A stretch of 64,000 nt of DNA from a virus (IMGVR_UViG_3300012663_001722:1-64000), one strand, 5' to 3'. Numbered from the stretch's first letter, positions 2,496 through 39,376 are shown. The notes: a model not told the origin generated them from the letters alone. Program-made: numbers and translations.

Positions 2496-2706
2496 TTCAT
2501 ATTTTTTAAATATTTCTCCTATTGCACACTGAAGACCTAGGTCTGTGGCTCCTAGTAAATCCCATGTCGGATGTAATATTCTCGAATGGGCAGATGATGC
2601 TACATCAAATGTACAGCCGCTCCATATCTTGCTCCACACTTGATCCTCTACGCTGCAAAATACTGCATTCTTTATAGTGACATTGATCTCGTTTTTCAAT
2701 ATTCAT
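2472..2706 (-). pseudogene. Diverged MNI..YEY family gene with apparent +1 frameshift near the start
   Basis: ATG AAT ATT GAA AAA C GAG ATC: coupled ATG at 2706 is one base out of frame with the body ORF (2472..2699, TTG start). Confidence 0.45.
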
Positions 2707-2842
2707 ATCCGTTTATTGCATTGTCAACTGAGCCATAAATTGCGTTAATAACTGAGCCATAAACTGAGCCCCAAACTGAGCCACCAACTGAGCCCCAAAC
2801 TGAGTTACTAACTAAGTCATATATTTCCCTTTCAATATTCAT
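2696..2842 (-). CDS. SVxx-repeat mini-protein (48 aa)
   Basis: Read by hand: MNIEREIYDLVSNSVWGSVGGSVWGSVYGSVINAIYGSVDNAINGYEY; below ORF-track cutoff. Confidence 0.75.
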   Translation of the reverse strand: MNIEREIYDLVSNSVWGSVGGSVWGSVYGSVINAIYGSVDNAINGYEY

Positions 2843-2965
2843 AATCTGCTATTACAGTGTTAACAGAGTTACTAACTGAGTTACAAACTGAGTTCCAAAC
2901 TGAGTTCCAAACTGAGTTCCAAACTGAGTTACTAACTGAGTTACTAACTGAGTTACTAACTGAGC
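2720..2965. repeat. 12-bp tandem repeat array B (plus strand NNNNNAACTGAG)
   Basis: aactgag recurring every 12 bp in two blocks. Confidence 0.9.
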
Positions 2966-2990
2966 GATCTATTTCCCTTTCAATATTCAT
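2832..2990 (-). CDS. SVxx-repeat mini-protein (52 aa)
   Basis: Read by hand: MNIEREIDR(SVSN)3(SVWN)3SVCNSVSNSVNTVIADYEY. Confidence 0.75.
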   Translation of the reverse strand: MNIEREIDRSVSNSVSNSVSNSVWNSVWNSVWNSVCNSVSNSVNTVIADYEY

Positions 2991-3180
2991 AATGATCTAT
3001 ATAGTCGTCAATAGCATCTACAATTTTACATGTGCATACAAAATGAGGATATGTTACCTTAGACCAATAGATGTTATGAAAATCATAAGGTACAATGTAA
3101 GTCAAATCGTCAAGCTGTGTTTTAAGACTTGACTCACTAGTCTGCACATGACAATGTAGTTTTTCAAAAATATCAGTCAT
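2980..3180 (-). CDS. Hypothetical protein ending HYEY, coupled to the SVxx array
   Basis: ATG 3180 just after the tRNA; track extension to 3267 is tRNA sequence. Confidence 0.6.
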   Translation of the reverse strand: MTDIFEKLHCHVQTSESSLKTQLDDLTYIVPYDFHNIYWSKVTYPHFVCTCKIVDAIDDYIDHYEY

Positions 3181-3189
3181 AATAGAGAG

Positions 3190-3273
3190 TAGCCACGGCC
3201 GGAGTCGAACCGGCACGCCCGTAAGGACAACGGATTTTAAGTCCGCGACGTCTACCAATTCCGCCACGTGGCC
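3190..3273 (-). tRNA. trnL-TAA: tRNA-Leu (anticodon TAA), no encoded CCA
   Basis: GGCCACG acceptor, D arm GGCGGAATTGGTAGAC, anticodon loop CTTAAAA, long variable arm, GGTTCGACTCC T arm. Confidence 0.95.
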
Positions 3274-3288
3274 ATAAAACTTTATTTA

Positions 3289-3528
3289 TCAAATTCCTCG
3301 ATAGAGAGTATAGAAGGCAACATCTTCAGGCGTTGCATCTCGTACATATTCATAAGAACTGCTATGATGCGATGTGTATATATCAACTTCATGATATACT
3401 TTATTATCGCTGCCAATAAAATAACCACTTTTCCATCTACCAGTTATGATAAGATGCTGTTGAATTATTCTCAAGATCTCGCTCTGCGAGAGCTCTACTT
3501 CGACATGTTGAATTGCTTTTACTCTCAT
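3289..3528 (-). CDS. Hypothetical protein
   Basis: 79 aa ORF coupled (ATGA) to upstream gene. Confidence 0.6.
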   Translation of the reverse strand: MRVKAIQHVEVELSQSEILRIIQQHLIITGRWKSGYFIGSDNKVYHEVDIYTSHHSSSYEYVRDATPEDVAFYTLYRGI

Positions 3529-3947
3529 GCTTCTGAAGTTTTCATTGTTTCATGAACAGTGTCAATCACAATGGTATCGGGCTCGCCTTCATCTTGAAGA
3601 ATTTTTGTGCCCTCAGGCCAAGCTTGTTCTTTGGCTTTTTTGCCTTTGGTTTTTTTTAGCACAGGAGTCACGCTACTTAGCACTGGCTTGCCAGCTTTTT
3701 TAGCGCGCTTTGTGCCACTTGATGTTGGAGCAGTGACTGCCCTACCTGCATCAACGCCTGTGACATCCCATTTGCCTCGTCCGACTTTATTTGTCATAAA
3801 GACTTCAGCAGCGCCAACATAACCGAAGCCATGCGCGCGGGCTGTTTCATAGATTTGAACTGTAGAGGCAACAGGCCAAGCACCAATTGCATGTAGTGCG
3901 TTAATAACTGTTGCATTGTCACCATATTTTGTACGTGTTTGTTTCAT
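3525..3947 (-). CDS. Stand-alone paralog of the N-terminal domain of the MoxR/CobS-like ATPase, with basic tail
   Basis: ALHAIGAWPVASTVQIYETARAHGF..FMTNKVGRGKW aligns by eye with SLKAIGAWPTASTTQIYEHARANGF..FMTHKVGRGSW at 60761..61939. Confidence 0.75.
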   Translation of the reverse strand: MKQTRTKYGDNATVINALHAIGAWPVASTVQIYETARAHGFGYVGAAEVFMTNKVGRGKWDVTGVDAGRAVTAPTSSGTKRAKKAGKPVLSSVTPVLKKTKGKKAKEQAWPEGTKILQDEGEPDTIVIDTVHETMKTSEA

Positions 3948-3972
3948 AATATATTTGTTGTTTGTTGGAGAA

Positions 3973-4152
3973 TTAGAGATTGTTGTGAAGGACCAAATAG
4001 TCGACATAGCATTTTACACTAGACAAAGTCTTGAAGGTGGTTGCGCGCACCATCCACATGCCGCCATGTGTGCCGCTATTGGGCAGGCGTTTGAAAATAG
4101 TTACGCCGCGATATTCAGAGTGCTTTTTGTATTTAGGAGTGAGAACTAACAT
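3973..4152 (-). CDS. Small early protein (59 aa)
   Basis: Read by hand: MLVLTPKYKKHSEYRGVTIFKRLP...; first ATG after promoter. Confidence 0.6.
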   Translation of the reverse strand: MLVLTPKYKKHSEYRGVTIFKRLPNSGTHGGMWMVRATTFKTLSSVKCYVDYLVLHNNL

Positions 4153-4260
4153 ATTGCTTACAAGGATATTATACCATAAAACACAGGAAAAGTAAACAAA
4201 AAAGTGATATTTTTTTCACTTTTTTTAGGGGCCCCAGGCCGGCCCCCCAGCTGGGCCCCA
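4153..4260 (-). promoter_or_regulatory. Early promoter type II (TTTACT-17-TATAAT) with A-tract and upstream GC-rich palindromic element
   Basis: -10 4168-4173, -35 4191-4196, GC element 4228-4260. Confidence 0.8.
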
Positions 4261-4304
4261 GACATATATGTCTGGGGTCTTATTCGTGGCTCTCTCAGTT
4301 CAGC

Positions 4305-4526
4305 TTAGGGAGCGCAGACTAATGCATATTCACGCTGATGAATCTCGCTCCACACCTTTGATTCTATTCCTAAATTCATCATTGGCGAGATTATGCCATT
4401 CCATATCTCATCATCAGCCACACCATAGCCGGAAAATGTCATATGCTTGACTGCTATCAAGCTTGAAGAGATCGCGTCACGGGCCGCGCGCTGTATCTTG
4501 TCTCTTACCTCTACGTCAATATTCAT
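4305..4526 (-). CDS. Diverged MNI..YEY family protein
   Basis: MNIDVEV start overlapping upstream YEY-stop. Confidence 0.6.
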   Translation of the reverse strand: MNIDVEVRDKIQRAARDAISSSLIAVKHMTFSGYGVADDEIWNGIISPMMNLGIESKVWSEIHQREYALVCAP

Positions 4527-4740
4527 AATCAAAAAGACTATCTGCTATTCTAACGTATAGCTCGACCCATACTACGTCACTTACAGGAATCTCTATATCA
4601 CACCAAACATTGTCTGAGACTATGTTATGTTTAGATCTCGAAACGCTTTCGAAAAGTGGATCCGCTATATTAATATAGCTTCTGCGGCGTGTTACGTCAT
4701 ATAGATATTCTTCAATATTCATATATTGTTGATATATCAT
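4516..4740 (-). CDS. Diverged MNI..YEY family protein
   Basis: MNIEEYL near N-terminus, ends DYEY. Confidence 0.6.
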   Translation of the reverse strand: MIYQQYMNIEEYLYDVTRRRSYINIADPLFESVSRSKHNIVSDNVWCDIEIPVSDVVWVELYVRIADSLFDYEY

Positions 4741-4973
4741 TCAAAAATACCCGCGGGTATAAGGGTATAACTAACTTTCACCGACATCAACGATGAGTGC
4801 TTATCATAAAAATCATATTCAAAACTGGATAATACACGATCATATCTTACTCTACTTCGCACACTATTAATAACATCGACTTCCACAATATTTGCAATTT
4901 CGAAATATAGCTGTTCACGCAGACTGATATTTTTGTCATATAGTTTGGTATCTATTTCCTTTTCAATATTCAT
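4737..4973 (-). CDS. Diverged MNIEKEI family protein
   Basis: MNIEKEID N-terminus; residual NSV/SV motifs. Confidence 0.65.
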   Translation of the reverse strand: MNIEKEIDTKLYDKNISLREQLYFEIANIVEVDVINSVRSRVRYDRVLSSFEYDFYDKHSSLMSVKVSYTLIPAGIFE

Positions 4974-5169
4974 ATTCTTTTATTGCAGCGTTAACTGAGT
5001 TCCTAACTGAGTCACTAACTGAGATACCAGCTGAGATACCAGCTGAGATCCAAACTGAGATCCGAACTGAGATCCGAACTGAGTCATCAACCGAGCTATA
5101 AACCGAGTTATTAACTGAGTCATAAACTGAATTTCTAACTACATTATCTATTTCCTTTTTAATATTCAT
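4963..5169 (-). CDS. SVxx-repeat mini-protein
   Basis: MNIKKEID..(xxSV)n..NAAIKEYEY. Confidence 0.8.
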   Translation of the reverse strand: MNIKKEIDNVVRNSVYDSVNNSVYSSVDDSVRISVRISVWISAGISAGISVSDSVRNSVNAAIKEYEY

Positions 5170-5525
5170 ATTCCTCTAATATATCAATAACCGAGTCTCT
5201 AACTGAGTCCCAAACTGAGCCATAAACTGTGTTCCTAACTGAGATACCAACTGAGTGCCAAACTGAGTCTCTAACTGAGTGCCAAACTGAGTCTCTAACT
5301 GAGTTATCAACTGAGCGATCTATTTCCTTTTCAATATTCATATTCTTTTATTGCAGCGTTAACTGAGTTACTAACCGAGTCCCAAACTGAGTTCCCAACT
5401 GAGTTCAAAACTGAGTTCCCAACTGAGCCACCAACTGAGCCCCAAACTGAGTTACTAGCTGAGTTACGAACTGAGTCCCAAACTGAGTTACTAACTGAGT
5501 TATTAACTGAGTCAATAACTGAATA
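4985..5525. repeat. 12-bp tandem repeat array A
   Basis: aactgag/aaccgag every 12 bp in three blocks. Confidence 0.9.
5159..5341 (-). CDS. SVxx-repeat mini-protein
   Basis: MNIEKEIDR..SVRDSVWH..EEYEY. Confidence 0.8.
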   Translation of the reverse strand: MNIEKEIDRSVDNSVRDSVWHSVRDSVWHSVGISVRNTVYGSVWDSVRDSVIDILEEYEY

Positions 5526-13833: not shown

Positions 13834-13923
13834 GAGACCATTATACCATAAAAGTCCACAAAAGTAAACAAAAAAGTGAAAAAATGTGAAAATATTTTAG
13901 GGGCCCGGGCCGGCCCCAGGCCT
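13834..13923 (-). promoter_or_regulatory. Early promoter type II with upstream GC-rich element
   Basis: -10 13840-13845, -35 13863-13868, GC element 13900-13923. Confidence 0.8.
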
Positions 13924-14826: not shown

Positions 14827-15045
14827 TTATTTTATTGCAGCGTTAAGCGAGATATAAACTGAGTTACTAACCGAGTTCCGAACTGAGACATTAACTGAGA
14901 TCCAAACTGAGCTCCAAACTGAGCCATCAACTGAGTTACAAAGTGAGTTACAAAGTGAGTCATCAACTGAGTCATAGACTGAGTTACTAACTGAGTCCCA
15001 AACTGAGTCAATAACTGAATAATATATTGCTTCTTTAATATCCAT
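14827..15045 (-). CDS. SVxx-repeat mini-protein
   Basis: MDIKEAIYYSVIDSVWDSV..NAAIK. Confidence 0.8.
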   Translation of the reverse strand: MDIKEAIYYSVIDSVWDSVSNSVYDSVDDSLCNSLCNSVDGSVWSSVWISVNVSVRNSVSNSVYISLNAAIK

Positions 15046-15190
15046 ATTCCCTTAGTGCAATATTAACAGAGTTATTAACTGAGCTCCTAACTGAGATCCA
15101 AACTGAGCTCCAAACTGAGTAACAAACCGAGCTATAAACCGAGCTATAAACCGAGTTATTAACTGAGTCACTAACTGAGCTAAAAACTGA
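14845..15190. repeat. 12-bp tandem repeat array C
   Basis: aactgag/aaccgag every 12 bp. Confidence 0.9.
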
Positions 15191-15217
15191 GACATCTATT
15201 TCCTTTTCAATATTCAT
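15035..15217 (-). CDS. SVxx-repeat mini-protein
   Basis: MNIEKEIDVSVFSSV..REYGY; start refined to 15217. Confidence 0.8.
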   Translation of the reverse strand: MNIEKEIDVSVFSSVSDSVNNSVYSSVYSSVCYSVWSSVWISVRSSVNNSVNIALREYGY

Positions 15218-18355: not shown

Positions 18356-18735
18356 TTGATCTTTGTTACTTTTACTTTGATTTTTCCAGTTTTTAGATTA
18401 TATATGCTGCTTGCCGCAGCGCGACTGAGATCAACAATTCGTGTCGGATGTGAACGCAGCGGCTTAATAGCTTTTCCATTTGAAGTTGCAAACGGCCCCC
18501 GATCGGTAATTTTTACGATTACACTCTTGCCATTTGCTAGATTTGTCACACGTACTGTTGAACCTAATGGAAAACGTGTGCTTGCAGCAGTATATGATCT
18601 ATCGCATAATGCTATGCCGCTTGCAGTATGAGTGCCGCCATTGCATGCTATAGTGTAATAGCTTGCTTCTCCAATAAGGGTTTGGGAGAATGCGGTGCTT
18701 AGCATGACAAATATCAATAATAGTATTTTTTTCAT
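18352..18735 (-). CDS. RlpA-like double-psi beta-barrel lytic transglycosylase with signal peptide
   Basis: GEASYY, TASG, TAAS, PLGSTVRVTN, VKITDRGPF, IVDLSRAAA. Confidence 0.85.
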   Translation of the reverse strand: MKKILLLIFVMLSTAFSQTLIGEASYYTIACNGGTHTASGIALCDRSYTAASTRFPLGSTVRVTNLANGKSVIVKITDRGPFATSNGKAIKPLRSHPTRIVDLSRAAASSIYNLKTGKIKVKVTKIK

Positions 18736-18740
18736 AATGA

Positions 18741-18945
18741 TAATTTGTTAGACTGATTGCCAACCTCACGCAAAGGTTTGTGTTTTAAGCTTTAGAGCTT
18801 GAGGTTTTACTACAAAGTTTTAAATTTTGAATTTTTACTTGCAATCGAAATATGCAAATCGTTATCCTTATCGTTATCAGTGAAGTATATGTGACTGAAC
18901 TCAGTCAAGTTTTTGAGGTCAGCAAGTCAGTCTAACAAAAATTAT
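18741..18945 (-). ncRNA. Candidate ~200 nt structured non-coding RNA
   Basis: Ends pair over ~25 bp (18744-18768 with 18914-18939) with G-U pairs only on the minus strand; three internal hairpins; no ORF. Confidence 0.65.
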
Positions 18946-18950
18946 TTATA
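18943..18950 (-). promoter_or_regulatory. T4-type late promoter consensus TATAAATA
   Basis: Exact match overlapping the stop of 18946..19404, immediately 5' of the RNA stem. Confidence 0.5.
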
Positions 18951-19404
18951 CAGTAGTTGTTGCATTGTAATTATCAACAACGTCTTGTAAATCTTCTACG
19001 AATTTTTGATAAAACTCGATTTTAGAGCGAACAGATTTGATGTCAAAGCAGTGCTCAATTGTATAGTCGCTTGTCATATAGGATCCAGTCTTGCGATCAT
19101 AGACCTGTTCTGTTTTACCATTTACTCCACTTATGTTTTCAAGTTGAGTTAAATATGTCAGCATAGCTTTGGCCTCAGCGAGGCCAACAAGTTCATCAGC
19201 GATGCAACCATTTGCACGTTGAATCTTAGCCTTAAGATTTATAAGACTAGCCTTTTCATCTAGTAACTTTTCCCATAGGTCACTTACATTTTCAACGGGT
19301 GTCTCATTGCTATGATAGCGGTTATATTTCTCGATGAGTTTTTGCAGGTTAACAATTCGACCAGCGATACGGTTTTTTTCTTTCAGAGCTTGTGCAATGT
19401 TCAT
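18946..19404 (-). CDS. Coiled-coil protein, DIP1984-like by recollection
   Basis: MNIAQALKEKNRI..L..KI..AN..LAE.K..IDNYNATT pattern. Confidence 0.65.
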   Translation of the reverse strand: MNIAQALKEKNRIAGRIVNLQKLIEKYNRYHSNETPVENVSDLWEKLLDEKASLINLKAKIQRANGCIADELVGLAEAKAMLTYLTQLENISGVNGKTEQVYDRKTGSYMTSDYTIEHCFDIKSVRSKIEFYQKFVEDLQDVVDNYNATTTV

Positions 19405-19409
19405 ATTTT

Positions 19410-19440
19410 TATAGTATAATGTTTTTCGTTATTTGTAAAT
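19410..19440 (-). promoter_or_regulatory. sigma70-like promoter
   Basis: TTTACA..TATACT upstream of 19404. Confidence 0.6.
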
Positions 19441-19447
19441 GTTATTT

Positions 19448-20545
19448 TTAATTATTTTCATGGAAGCAAAGATAAAGTCCAACTTGGCTAAGCAGCATAA
19501 TTATAAATGCAGCAACTACCCAGCCTGTTCCAATAATAACTGGAGCATCTTTATATTTTGTCCATTCATGTGCTTCATAGCTAGCAAGCACTATAGCCTT
19601 TAGCTCTGGCAACAAATAGTCATTGATTGGTTTTTCGAGAAATAAACTTTGAATGTTTAATTTCACGAGCTCGCTTTTACTCCAGCCAAAAACATAACAC
19701 CATTGAGCTGGAGCATTCTTTTCACCATCATAGCAAATCACAAGATCATTCTTTTTACCATTTTGCCAATAGCCTTGAAGTTGTTTTGCTTGATCAACTC
19801 CACCTTTTAGATTTACGAGAACCAAATTTACATGCTTCGTGGGTCCTAGATAGCTATTCAGCTTATCCCAATTCCAAATGTTAATTGCTATGTCTCCAAT
19901 TATACGCGAGCTGCCAAAGGTTTCGTTTTTGGGATATTGAGGCAAGCCTAAACTCTGTGCTTCTTTATCACTAATATTTTTATAGCTATGCAAGCCTTGA
20001 GTATTTTTTAATGGATTTGACCACGAACGGGTTTGTGTCATAGGATAATCGCAATATTCTGGATCATCATGCACCTCGCTGATATAATCATTCATATCGC
20101 CGCTATAATAATGATAACGATCGCCGCGAACGCTATGTGTGCCATGTTTTTCTGCAATTTGCATATAGAAACTTTGCGTGATGCTTACACGGCCAAGAGT
20201 TGTATCAGCATGCCATTCTGGAGGATAATGACGATTACGAGTTACAATTCGTGTATGTGATTGTGACTTGCCTTTACTATCTGTTGTTGTATATGTCTCA
20301 AGCTCAGTCCAGCGTGCATGCCATTCAGGAATATAAACAGCAGAGGTTACACTGCCGCTTAGTGTCTCGCTATCTCTTTTCATGCTGCATGTGCCAAGCG
20401 TTAGCACACCAGTAATAATTAAGATAGCAGCGACGACTCCTGCGCCAAGTTCTTTCAGATCAATTGTATCATATTTGATCCAACAAAAAATCCCTGCAAT
20501 TACAGGGATTAACATTAGTACAAATAGCCAGTAGCCTAGTGTCAT
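19448..20545 (-). CDS. Membrane protein with large extracytoplasmic domain
   Basis: Two N-terminal and one C-terminal TM segments; W.NGKKNDLVI motif. Confidence 0.7.
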   Translation of the reverse strand: MTLGYWLFVLMLIPVIAGIFCWIKYDTIDLKELGAGVVAAILIITGVLTLGTCSMKRDSETLSGSVTSAVYIPEWHARWTELETYTTTDSKGKSQSHTRIVTRNRHYPPEWHADTTLGRVSITQSFYMQIAEKHGTHSVRGDRYHYYSGDMNDYISEVHDDPEYCDYPMTQTRSWSNPLKNTQGLHSYKNISDKEAQSLGLPQYPKNETFGSSRIIGDIAINIWNWDKLNSYLGPTKHVNLVLVNLKGGVDQAKQLQGYWQNGKKNDLVICYDGEKNAPAQWCYVFGWSKSELVKLNIQSLFLEKPINDYLLPELKAIVLASYEAHEWTKYKDAPVIIGTGWVVAAFIIMLLSQVGLYLCFHENN

Positions 20546-21391: not shown

Positions 21392-21802
21392 TTATAGTTC
21401 AACGTCTGAGAATGGAACGATGCAAGCGCAATAGCTCCACTTAGAAGGTAAGATCGCAGCCACTCCAGATAGTTCTTCTTGTTCTTCTTTAGACTCAGGA
21501 ATCATCCAAAGAATTACACTATCGTGCGGCATATCACAACCATCATCGGGATATGTTTCTTGCGTCTCGATAGAGAAGCCTTCAGCAAAAGCATATGAGT
21601 CATCTTCAAATCTTATAGATTCACCACATGGTGCATTGCCCGAGATGTTGTAGTTCACATTAAGATATTTGTGATTCGTACTTGAGAAACTTGCAACCCA
21701 TTGGCCTTTGCTATTTTTAAGAGCACGAAGACCAGTTAGACTGATCTTCTCTCCGGCCTTGGCTTCAGCATGAGTATAACGATGTTCAACAGCTAATTTC
21801 AT
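21392..21802 (-). CDS. Hypothetical protein
   Basis: 136 aa ORF coupled to ligase. Confidence 0.6.
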   Translation of the reverse strand: MKLAVEHRYTHAEAKAGEKISLTGLRALKNSKGQWVASFSSTNHKYLNVNYNISGNAPCGESIRFEDDSYAFAEGFSIETQETYPDDGCDMPHDSVILWMIPESKEEQEELSGVAAILPSKWSYCACIVPFSDVEL

Positions 21803-22788
21803 TTTCTTTCATCGTATTGTAGGTTAATAATTTTGAAGCTTCCGCCAGCATGTTTGATTACAACACCTTCAAAAGCTTTGCCATCAATCTTATCAATCTC
21901 GGCGCTATATTTTTGAATGTGTTCTGGAGTTAGCACAACACTTTTTTCAAGCATTGGCACAACTGGAATGTTTAGCTGAGCACAAACCTTCTCATAGTAA
22001 TGGTTGTCATCTGGATCAGCATAACATAATTCATCCATTTTGTAAACATTAAAGGCAGCAAAATTTAGTGGCAACTGACCGTGAGGATTTTTACCAAAGC
22101 CCTGAATGCTATTGCCATAGAGCTCACCGCGCAAGCTTAGACTAACATCATGCTGTTGACAATAAGCTGCTAGCTTATTGAGAATGTCATACTTAGCAAC
22201 TCCTTGAATATATTTGTTATCACATTCAGTTTTAAGGCGCAAGCTACGACTAGTGACACCAGTTTCCCAAGAGCCGTCTTCAAGTTTGCGAGCATATACA
22301 CTTAACGAGCTGCCATCAATCTTGAGCGTAATATCACACACTTCACCAAAGGGCAAGTCAGCGATATTCTGCCAACGCTCTTCATCAGTCTTAGGCAAGC
22401 CACGTGGCAAATAGCCAGCGGCGCTGAGATCTTGAGGAGCAGGTGGCTCATATTTAGTTACGCCAATAATTTCAGAGACTTCAGTGCCTGGCACAATATC
22501 ACCATAGGCAACAAGTGCAGACCAAGTGCCAATAGACATCACGATGCCAAAGCTCCATTCGCCACGCAAACGACAAGCCTTAACACGATTGCTACGTTTG
22601 CGGAACATTTCAGCCCACGGTTCGTCAGGCAGCACTGTATCAGGTTGGATTAGCACAACCTTATCTCCTTGAGAGAAGGCATCACGAGCAACAATGCAGC
22701 GATAGCCAAGTACAGTTGCAATGTCGAGAGCATCGGCATTTGGGTGCTGCTCGATAGTTTTAATAGTTTCAATAGAAGCGAGTTTCAT
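21799..22788 (-). CDS. RNA ligase, DRB0094/Rnl5-like
   Basis: N-terminal IEQHPNADALD..GY.CIV domain, KIDGSS, GELYG, EGVVIK, FKIIN. Confidence 0.85.
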   Translation of the reverse strand: MKLASIETIKTIEQHPNADALDIATVLGYRCIVARDAFSQGDKVVLIQPDTVLPDEPWAEMFRKRSNRVKACRLRGEWSFGIVMSIGTWSALVAYGDIVPGTEVSEIIGVTKYEPPAPQDLSAAGYLPRGLPKTDEERWQNIADLPFGEVCDITLKIDGSSLSVYARKLEDGSWETGVTSRSLRLKTECDNKYIQGVAKYDILNKLAAYCQQHDVSLSLRGELYGNSIQGFGKNPHGQLPLNFAAFNVYKMDELCYADPDDNHYYEKVCAQLNIPVVPMLEKSVVLTPEHIQKYSAEIDKIDGKAFEGVVIKHAGGSFKIINLQYDERK

Positions 22789-22799
22789 AATTTTGTAGA

Positions 22800-23063
22800 T
22801 TAGCCAGCGTGAAAGCTTGCGCAAACAACGCGAGGCAGTATTTCGTTTTCAGCAGCAACTCCGACTAGAGTAACGCTCACATTTTCAGGCGAGCTCGCCC
22901 AGCCGCTATAACGATATTGCCAATCCGCGTCAGTCATAAAGACGTTACCGGACAAGCTAGGGTTTATACGGCGCGCAATTTCAACATCAGGTGCGACCAC
23001 TACAGCATCGCTATAGGTATCATAGCCGCGATTTTCAGTTTGAGAGATATGGTAGATGTTCAT
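22800..23063 (-). CDS. Hypothetical phage protein
   Basis: GYDTYSDAVVVAPD...VVCASFHAG pattern. Confidence 0.7.
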   Translation of the reverse strand: MNIYHISQTENRGYDTYSDAVVVAPDVEIARRINPSLSGNVFMTDADWQYRYSGWASSPENVSVTLVGVAAENEILPRVVCASFHAG

Positions 23064-38647: not shown

Positions 38648-39376
38648 TTAAATGCATTTGCGAATTATATCGGCTTCTTCGTCACGTCGACGTAACAAAC
38701 CATCAAGACCTTTACCAACCCATAATCTTTTCATTGCAATTATTTGATCTGCAATATATTTATAAAGTTCTTTGTTAATTGGTTTAGTTGCAATAGCGTC
38801 TTTTATATTTTTCATTTCAACTCGAGATGCACCCTTTGTGCTGCCACCTCGATTAAAGACAATTGATACAAGAGCTCCAAAGGCATCAGGATGTAGCTTA
38901 TCAGCTCCAGGAAAACTCGTCTTGGTTAGTTTAATAAAACGAGGCAATGTTCTCTCATTAAATACTTCCTGAGCGCTGCTCCATGGAATGTTAATATCCT
39001 TTAGACCTGAGATTTTTCCACTAGCAGCTTTGCTCTTTAGACCAATACAACCATGCAAACGAGCAAAAACCTTTGCATCAAGTTTGTTTTTCCAGTCACG
39101 AGCAAATCCTTCTGCTGTATTATAGCCTAGATCATAGCCAATGCCGATTGTAACACCGCTCTGGCCGCCTGGATAGGTTGGTCTTTGCAATGCTTTTTTA
39201 TAATAGCTTTCTCCACCTGTCTCATGTTTAATTATGAGATCATATGATTTCTTAGTTAAGCCATGTGTTTTATCAAGTCTTTTTTCAAGTATCTCGGGAG
39301 ATACACTAGTTGGGGTTTCAATAATCTTTTTAGTAAAGATCTTGCCAATTGTGTTTAATATTAATTGTTTAATCAT
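38648..39376 (-). CDS. Lysozyme-like (pesticin/T4-lysozyme fold) peptidoglycan hydrolase
   Basis: HETGG..YPGGQSGVTIGIGYDLG..ALVSIVFNRG..LLRRRDEEA. Confidence 0.8.
   Translation of the reverse strand: MIKQLILNTIGKIFTKKIIETPTSVSPEILEKRLDKTHGLTKKSYDLIIKHETGGESYYKKALQRPTYPGGQSGVTIGIGYDLGYNTAEGFARDWKNKLDAKVFARLHGCIGLKSKAASGKISGLKDINIPWSSAQEVFNERTLPRFIKLTKTSFPGADKLHPDAFGALVSIVFNRGGSTKGASRVEMKNIKDAIATKPINKELYKYIADQIIAMKRLWVGKGLDGLLRRRDEEADIIRKCI

Follow-up and report, generated by a model that had tools for sequence, protein, structure and literature searches.

What is encoded in the 210-nt gap between positions 18735 and 18946 of IMGVR_UViG_3300012663_001722:1-64000, and does it belong to the gene that precedes it? 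This 64,000-nt stretch of viral DNA (hereafter the window) is part of an 86-kb IMG/VR record with an estimated completeness of 48% and originates from a freshwater T4-like phage, with read recruitment pointing to lake and other fresh water. A preliminary description, made from the sequence alone, had proposed that the gap encodes a structured RNA closed by a long-range stem, and that this RNA might form a ribonucleoprotein (RNP) with an oligomer of the 152-amino-acid (152-aa) protein encoded just upstream. We examined the window together with 66 viral, 80 metagenomic, and 19 genomic loci and nine close relatives. The RNA is conserved, lies on the strand of the gene, and is paired with it; we are highly confident that it is real and that the two belong together. 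The best overall explanation, which we hold to be probable on balance, is a structured RNA that would assemble with an oligomer of the protein encoded next to it and would serve in the response to RNA damage. The gene, the RNA element, and its closing stem (P1) are located as follows.

18946..19404, minus strand: gene for the 152-aa DIP1984/DUF6847-like protein (open reading frame [ORF], hidden Markov model [HMM], and fold match)
18744..18939, minus strand: whole RNA element, about 196 nt (covariance model [CM] match and minimum free energy [MFE] fold)
18914..18939, minus strand: 5′ arm of the closing stem P1 (MFE fold and pairing in relatives)
18744..18768, minus strand: 3′ arm of the closing stem P1 (MFE fold and pairing in relatives)

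The element is separated by 7 nt from the preceding stop codon, that of the gene, and by 8 nt from the start codon that follows. The minus-strand RNA folded with an MFE of -57.8 kcal/mol, compared to -33.9 ± 3.9 kcal/mol for dinucleotide shuffles (z = -6.1). The predicted stem was recovered exactly as it had been drawn, with an outer segment of 13 bp (18939-18927 with 18744-18756), a 1-nt bulge at 18926, and an inner segment of 12 bp (18925-18914 with 18757-18768) that includes two G·U pairs (18921/18761 and 18920/18762). The sequences of the two arms differ from lineage to lineage. In a MAFFT alignment of the seven nearest relatives (protein identity of 66 to 97%), used as a complement to the stem-fitted CM alignment, 95.3% of the P1 cells were paired and 14 of the 25 pairs presented double-sided changes. 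In the family-wide, stem-fitted CM alignment, the outer 9 bp were 94% paired and contained 134 double-change cells versus 34 ± 5 in shuffles, while registers slid by 1 to 3 columns were only 29 to 48% paired (28 to 48% when the slid controls of both alignments are taken together). As an alignment-free control, the best end-closing helix was scored in 117 non-redundant tails located behind homologous genes; it topped all 20 dinucleotide shuffles in 45 of these tails and reached at least the 99th percentile of the null in 40%. P1 was also the sole helix returned by RNAalifold, whether MAFFT or CM alignments were supplied. When all column pairs of the CM alignment were scanned for extra helices and pseudoknots, only P1 and one pair of an internal hairpin (P3, below) were clear, and no pseudoknot was established in this lineage. 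An isolated column pair (170/214; C-G in 15 cases and U-A in 12) may represent a lineage signal.

A fold is likewise predicted for the plus strand of the inverted repeat (z = -4.6), and the repeats enclosed by it are short, periodic, and iteron-like, both of which would suit an element acting at the DNA level, such as a miniature inverted-repeat transposable element (MITE), an iteron origin, or a packaging or recombination site. However, P1 comprises 24 G·U or U·G cells across the family and just 3 A·C or C·A cells, and all 79 matches to the rebuilt covariance model described below are on the gene strand, in a fixed orientation to the gene. Taken with the fixed orientation, the G·U excess shows the sense-strand (minus-strand) RNA to be what selection acts on, rather than duplex DNA or antisense RNA, in line with the strand proposed initially. 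The same element is moreover found within bacterial RNA-repair (rtc) operons. The MITE was rejected given that the arms occur only here in the window and that the element is single copy in the record, and a DNA cruciform or origin was rejected on the G·U asymmetry and fixed orientation. Altogether, we regard a DNA-level element as extremely improbable.

Nearly every homolog of the gene is followed by an ORF-free tail of 170 to 450 nt sharing a common design, in which a 5′ arm located a few bases after the stop codon is matched by a 3′ arm about 200 nt further on. Between the arms, a region of variable hairpins comes first, then the GAnAAn box, then a small hairpin whose loop is often of the UUCG type, and finally the A-rich units; in some lineages, an intrinsic terminator follows the 3′ arm. 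A first covariance model (R1), built from 18 sequences of the window's clade, produced one match per locus in 55 of 100 sources, on the gene strand and downstream of the gene, and a single match in the 64-kb window (18743-18940, minus strand; 169 bits). The rebuilt model (R2) found exactly one copy in 79 of 100 loci, always on the gene strand and directly downstream (79/79); the window element scored 120 bits and was the only match in the 86-kb record. Five phage genomes (91 to 100% complete, 197 to 318 kb) contained one match each, at the gene, and the only covariance match in a 5.4-Mb bacterial genome was at the known locus. The gene-plus-RNA pair thus recurs in more than 100 phage and bacterial loci, with covariation, and the tie to the upstream gene suggested from a single locus holds across the family. 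What lies 3′ of the RNA varies (RlpA, RtcB, RtcA, an AAA ATPase, opposite-strand genes, or terminators), and the element therefore belongs to the upstream gene. A blastn search of the region against 50,697 phage records returned no match, and tblastn with the 152-aa protein matched one unannotated metagenomic phage.

Several lineages depart from this layout. In one phage clade (L009 2953-3145, L012, L013 2957-3189, L010, and L076-L081), the RNA begins 200 to 250 nt after the stop codon, and the intervening stretch is conserved and rich in hairpins (for example, ...CAGUAGGAUGACAACCUAC...); by analogy with yrlB/yrlA, it may constitute a second RNA. T-arm-like GGUUCGAAUCC hairpins occur in L009, L091, and L045. 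In a cyanophage-like clade (L021, L028, L031, L037, L069, and L124), a short Cys-rich, zinc-ribbon-like ORF (CDFC...CFECG) occupies the first ~190 nt after the stop codon of the DIP1984-like gene, and the RNA begins right behind it. Some relatives (L002 3704-3849, L157, and L158) carry genes for signal-peptide or membrane proteins of ~48 aa between the RNA and the RlpA-like gene.

Inside the stem, the following features were delineated from the MFE fold and the column profile of the CM alignment.

18892..18907, minus strand: P2, variable hairpin UGACUG-AGUU-CAGUCA (in MFE fold)
18859..18878, minus strand: hexad box, GAUAAC, GAUAAG, GAUAAC, and a final GA (CM-alignment column profile)
18839..18857, minus strand: P3, hairpin UUGCA, 9-nt loop, UGCAA (in MFE fold, covarying)
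18775..18837, minus strand: heptad array of U-Y-A-A-N-N-N units (CM-alignment column profile)

In the heptad array, the U, A, and A positions are 96 to 100% conserved at an exact seven-column period among 52 distinct sequences. The family layout consists of two units, a linker of ~10 nt (AAYUUnGU), and five units; in the window, two to three units precede a 7-nt UUUGUAG within the linker region, followed by five units. The preliminary description had counted about seven A-rich units of the type AAAA(C/U); the seven repeated units were indeed found, but they are better described as UYAA at a strict 7-nt period. The number of UYAA units is fixed at seven rather than variable and therefore argues for a geometric fit to a partner and not for a simple low-complexity tract. 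Upstream of P3, the GAUAAC/GAUAAG box that had been pointed out is equally real; family-wide, it appears as a GAnAAn box with four G residues at 6-nt spacing, two of which are invariant (100%) among 47 to 52 distinct sequences.

All three internal hairpins initially proposed are present in the MFE fold where they had been placed, yet they differ in conservation. P3 presented double-sided changes in five of its five pairs among near relatives in the MAFFT alignment, and a hairpin with a differing stem occupies this site in ~80% of 51 family members (mean z = -2.0). Covariation downstream of homologous genes, which the preliminary description had recommended looking for, was thus seen for both P1 (14/25 pairs) and P3. 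At the P2 site, each relative has its own, different hairpin when inspected by eye, the MAFFT count being spoiled by indels and misalignment. The AAGCU/AGCUU hairpin (18787-18800) displayed no compensatory change, and three of its five pairs only break; located inside the heptad array, it is probably not a conserved helix.

No cataloged family matched this RNA. At the gathering score, Rfam 15 identified only tRNAs, both in the window and in 33 other loci, and a relaxed search (E up to 10) over 18600-19100 returned only chance-level snoRNA, SAM-II, and U6 rows. RAGATH-27 (RF03100) likewise had no match in the window at gathering, over 18600-19100 at E up to 10, or in the 33 loci at gathering. 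Our literature search found nothing describing this RNA family. As the preliminary description had stated, no known family was recognized; the RNA is uncatalogued and belongs to neither the Ro60-Y RNA nor the HutP/TRAP families.

We then turned to the 152-aa protein. It matched PF20935 (Pfam; 25.2 bits, E = 1.7e-5) and NF038048 (NCBIfam; 34.4 bits) over its full length, at scores under the respective cut-offs of 27 and 70 bits. Its AlphaFold (AF2) model has a pLDDT (predicted local distance difference test) score of 91 and consists of a helix (residues 3-27), a long helix (40-91), a beta hairpin (97-116), and a last helix (122-149). The top Foldseek matches were 3kdq_C and 3kdq_A (probability 1.00, template-modeling [TM] score of 0.66 to 0.67), followed by weak prefoldin-like rows. 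3KDQ is the DIP1984 protein of Corynebacterium diphtheriae, with no function assigned. The DIP1984-like assignment made initially is borne out by this match (TM 0.66), and the length, the order of helices and beta hairpin, and the fold are all shared with the DIP1984/DUF6847 family (PF20935, NF038048, and 3KDQ), members of which are sometimes auto-named "septicolysin." A word-indexed search retrieved 80 homologs with identities ranging from 97% down to 28%, and a profile search of a metagenome-wide representative library yielded 1831 clusters at 50% identity; atlas neighbors of the protein carry PF20935. Because the HMM scores fall under both curated cut-offs, the protein represents a distinct subfamily within DIP1984/DUF6847-like proteins. 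The subfamily is marked by an N-terminal ALKEKNR (MNIAQALKEKNR, almost invariant) and a C-terminal LQDxIDxYNATT. The MNIAQALKEKNR N-terminus (residues 1-12, 19371-19404) remains near-identical in homologs down to ~30% overall identity, and this unusually strong conservation may mark an RNA-binding face.

Structure prediction with four copies of the protein gave an ipSAE interface score of 0.70, versus 0.00 for the best of three controls, with a contact agreement between runs of at least 95% and a partner pLDDT of at least 88. Among proteins of solved structure, a score of 0.70 was attained in 20 of 30 cases for pairs of one chain and in 1 of 23 for single chains, and the pass may partly reflect memory of a solved relative, 3KDQ (4 chains). 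The 152-aa protein is thus predicted to form a homo-oligomer. In the literature on DUF6847, DIP1984, and PF20935, we found nothing on the function of the family and one unrelated mention. Phage T5 (record AY543070) had no match with protein profile A2, PF20935, or RF03100 (E up to 1), although A2 represents one subfamily and a remote T5 relative is still compatible with this result. Among 14 control genomes, a PF20935 match above the cut-off was seen in Deinococcus radiodurans alone; TROVE/Ro60 was matched in two of the 14, D. radiodurans and one other.

How might such a protein and such an RNA work together? In the arrangement that we propose, P1 would close a large loop displaying the hexad box, P3, and the seven UYAA units, and a homo-oligomer of the 152-aa helical protein would bind along it, each subunit reading one periodic unit, to give a defined protein-RNA particle. 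The oligomeric RNP put forward initially, in which the protein would bind the repeated units, is compatible with the 7-nt period and with the predicted homo-oligomer (ipSAE of 0.70). We judge the formation of a particle from this RNA and this protein to be fairly probable, considering the structural model and the RNA periodicity. A mechanistic parallel is offered by HutP with hut mRNA and TRAP with the trp leader in Bacillus, which are ring oligomers reading evenly spaced short RNA units (NAG for HutP, at a 7-nt period, and GAG/UAG for TRAP). Short units at fixed spacing, arranged in two blocks with a linker, are seen here too, with UYAA as the unit, and this likeness, which concerns mechanism only, suggests that one UYAA unit may be bound per subunit of the homo-oligomer. 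In contrast, the folds are unrelated: the 152-aa protein is a helical bundle with a hairpin and has no HutP or TRAP Pfam match. Moreover, the HutP and TRAP targets are 5′ leaders acting in attenuation, whereas the present RNA lies 3′ of its partner gene, is closed by a stem, and precedes varied genes.

Type III toxin-antitoxin systems (ToxIN, CptIN, and TenpIN) also couple a protein gene with an RNA that contains repeats and assembles with the encoded protein. In those systems, the toxin gene is preceded by repeats of 36 to 45 nt, which the toxin, with its endoribonuclease fold, cleaves, whereas here 7-nt units are carried by a stem-closed RNA downstream of a gene for an all-helical bundle with a beta hairpin.

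The proximity of the element to the gene raises the question of whether it acts only in cis, as a 3′ untranslated region (UTR) that stabilizes the upstream mRNA or mediates feedback by the protein on its own message, with no free RNA being made. Such a role would account equally well for the link between protein and RNA, and it agrees with the position of the element 5 to 9 nt past the stop codon in most loci, with the lack of a conserved promoter of its own, and with the tight fit between the two flanking genes in the window. Nonetheless, protecting a 3′ end would call for far less than a sequence of some 200 nt in which seven invariant periodic units are combined with a hexad box and two helices that covary, and the element is kept in phages and bacteria over protein identities of 28 to 97%. 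In the phage clade with a further structured segment of ~200 nt between gene and element, strict abutment is evidently not needed. We therefore find a purely cis-acting 3′ UTR unlikely compared to a particle formed with the protein.

The transcription of the element bears on the same issue. An exact TATAAATA box, which had been interpreted as the element's own T4-type late promoter, is indeed located at 18943-18950, overlapping the stop codon of the gene. However, the box originates from the codons GTA-TAA-ATA, and of 135 homologous loci, the only 2 that retain it are those of the closest relatives; a late promoter as a family feature was thus rejected, the box being missing from the other 133. 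The window holds six exact TATAAATA boxes, where 5.3 are expected by chance, and all are on the minus (gene) strand; the others are at 38757, 44966, 46370, 48415, and 57321, in the 38- to 57-kb region. This one-sidedness suggests that some of the six are genuine late promoters of the T4 type, and the phage may well use them. Even so, with a number of boxes at chance level and a copy at the stop codon that follows from the codons, an independent small RNA made from a late promoter there seems very unlikely. In most loci the RNA starts 5 to 9 nt after the stop codon, and in bacteria it sits inside operons; the simplest source is therefore the gene's own transcript. The RNA would most likely be made as the 3′ part of that transcript and then either cut out or retained as a stable 3′ piece. 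Within the 3′ end of the gene (18964-19046, minus strand), we also noted two sigma-70-like hexamer pairs, TTGACA-16-TAAAAT (11/12 positions) and TTTACA-16-TACAAT (10/12 positions). The latter overlaps the conserved LQD...YN codons, and transcription from it would start ~18 nt before P1; these hexamers may be a by-product of coding.

The gene neighborhood provides a possible biological setting, one that the preliminary description had missed: the pair occurs in rtc operons and next to Ro60 in bacteria, and near RNA ligase genes in a phage clade. In metagenome-assembled genomes of Verrucomicrobiota, Lentisphaerota, and Kiritimatiellota, the order is a divergent RtcR gene, then the gene, the RNA, RtcA, and RtcB (L165); RtcR, gene, RNA, and RtcB (L168, L171, and L176); gene, RNA, and RtcA (L164); or a Ro60 homolog, gene, RNA, and RtcB (L170). 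RtcR lies upstream in L174, where RtcB was not found within the locus, and RtcB (read from its N-terminus) lies downstream in L187. A census of 176 loci with tblastn and ARAGORN, in which the flanks were mostly just 1.5 to 2.5 kb, counted RtcR in 9, RtcA in 6, RtcB in 6, Ro60 in 4, RNA ligase in 17, and tRNA genes in 19. In relatives from the window's own clade (L002/L005, L153, L155, L157, and L158), an RNA ligase gene (PF09414) is located upstream of the DIP1984-like gene, at a distance of one small gene. The corresponding neighbors in the window, where all genes flanking the element are on the minus strand, are the following.

21799..22824, minus strand: RNA ligase gene (PF09414 and PF21189), 2.4 kb upstream of the 152-aa gene (context, outside the RNA)
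18735-18352, minus strand: gene for an RlpA-like double-psi beta-barrel (DPBB) protein with a signal peptide, directly 3′ of the gap

Four small or uncharacterized genes separate the RNA ligase gene from the 152-aa gene, and genes for a thioredoxin-like protein, an HNH endonuclease, and UvdE lie beyond the RlpA-like gene.

These contexts resemble those of Y RNAs, which hold the place before the rtc genes in the Salmonella rsr-yrlBA-rtcBA operon (PMC4201824, PMC7790460). The likeness extends to the design of the RNA, namely, a long stem formed by the 5′ and 3′ ends that closes a large loop, to the placement of the RNA immediately 3′ of the presumed partner's gene, and to a position before rtcB or rtcA in RtcR operons (L165, L168, L170, L171, and L176); it is one of design and context, not of homology. 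Y RNAs are also carried by phages, and some lineages of the heptad RNA have tRNA-like T-arm hairpins in the variable part. Hallmarks of Y RNAs are a tRNA-like domain with D and T arms and, in the 5′ strand, the motif GNCGAAN0-1G to which Ro binds (PMC4201824). The motif is not present in the 5′ arm of the element (UUUGUUAGACUGACUUGCUGACCUCA), and neither ARAGORN nor Rfam detected a tRNA-like part in the window's element. The Y RNA and YrlA models of Rfam had no match in the window (at gathering, or at E up to 10 over 18600-19100), Y RNA models likewise failed to match any of 13 bacterial loci, among them L170 with its neighboring Ro60 gene, and TROVE/Ro60 (PF05731) had no match in the 86-kb record, which is 48% complete. 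The partner also differs, being a helical DUF6847-like protein of ~150 aa and not a TROVE ring, and nothing in Y RNAs corresponds to the heptad and hexad arrays. Where Ro60 is found (4 of 176 loci), it stands alongside the pair rather than replacing it.

On the basis of this context, the particle would serve the response to RNA damage, helping to repair cleaved tRNA or rRNA or to control its quality and working beside RNA ligases somewhat as Ro60 does with Y RNA; in a phage, it could keep translation running while host nucleases attack RNA. That the particle acts in RNA repair is a reasonable but tentative proposal, to which we would give slightly less than even weight. More doubtful still is the fullest version, a hitherto unrecognized RNP class in which a helical homo-oligomer is arrayed along, or ringed by, the seven UYAA units and acts as a functional counterpart of Ro60-Y RNA in RNA repair; bacteria would make it from RtcR-controlled operons along with RtcB and RtcA, and large phages would carry it next to RNA ligases and tRNA genes of their own to resist host attack on tRNA.

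The RNA-repair and tRNA-cluster contexts, together with the many identical single-stranded short sites, would also fit a decoy, sponge, or sentinel RNA whose UYAA units imitate the targets of a ribonuclease from the host, either an anticodon nuclease or an mRNA interferase, with the protein merely protecting or presenting the RNA. There is a precedent in YrlA, which was proposed as a competitive inhibitor of anticodon nuclease (PMC7790460). However, exact 7-nt spacing and a fixed unit count point to the geometry of an oligomer over the multiplication of sites, and a common nuclease is unlikely among hosts that span freshwater bacteria to gut bacteria of the Planctomycetota-Verrucomicrobiota-Chlamydiota (PVC) superphylum. 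A decoy is thus, in our estimation, quite improbable, and we favor a particle formed by the RNA with the oligomer and acting in the RNA-damage response.

Several observations nevertheless weigh against this preferred explanation. Regarding the RNA, alignments fitted to a CM are biased toward the modeled stem, and about one-fifth of the loci had no CM match, several of them being G+C-rich with units visible by eye only. Canonical, high-scoring PF20935 genes (L183-L185) have no obvious heptad RNA behind them. The contigs assembled from RNA libraries (Logan) span 18468-18708 on one side and 19278-19500 on the other, all outside the element, a result that is uninformative either way. Regarding RNA repair, the rtc and Ro60 contexts come mostly from the single PVC superphylum and perhaps from few independent events. 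The window's RNA ligase gene is split from the pair by three unrelated genes, the result of an insertion, other phages carrying the pair have RNA ligase genes 8 to 35 kb away and no RtcB, and RNA ligases are common in T4-like phages anyway.

Other repeated sequences were noted in the window. Between 2430 and 29176, a conserved intergenic cassette of ~80 nt is present in seven to eight copies (near 2445, 4154, 10153, 16328, 23328, 26022, and 29085; also at 13840 and 61988). On the gene strand, it combines a promoter-like TGnTATTAT region with a G+C-rich hairpin (GGGGCCCC...) and probably represents repeats of a promoter-terminator unit of the early or middle type. Repeat arrays with a 12-nt period lie within small genes at 2665-5511 and 14832-15191, and repeated junctions of ~30 nt were observed as well (families D1, D6, D7, and D9).

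If the proposed particle exists, a widespread protein family of unknown function would gain a fixed RNA partner and a biological setting; DIP1984-like proteins make up the 1831 clusters mentioned above, and their one crystal structure has stood unexplained since 2009. The strict 7-nt rail would represent an unusual and directly testable rule of protein-RNA recognition. To our knowledge, Rtc RNA repair is still poorly understood, and Ro60-Y RNA is its sole RNA-protein accessory known so far. Another particle, unrelated to Ro60-Y RNA but placed at the same point of these operons, would provide a handle on the targets of Rtc and on the protection of translation by phages.

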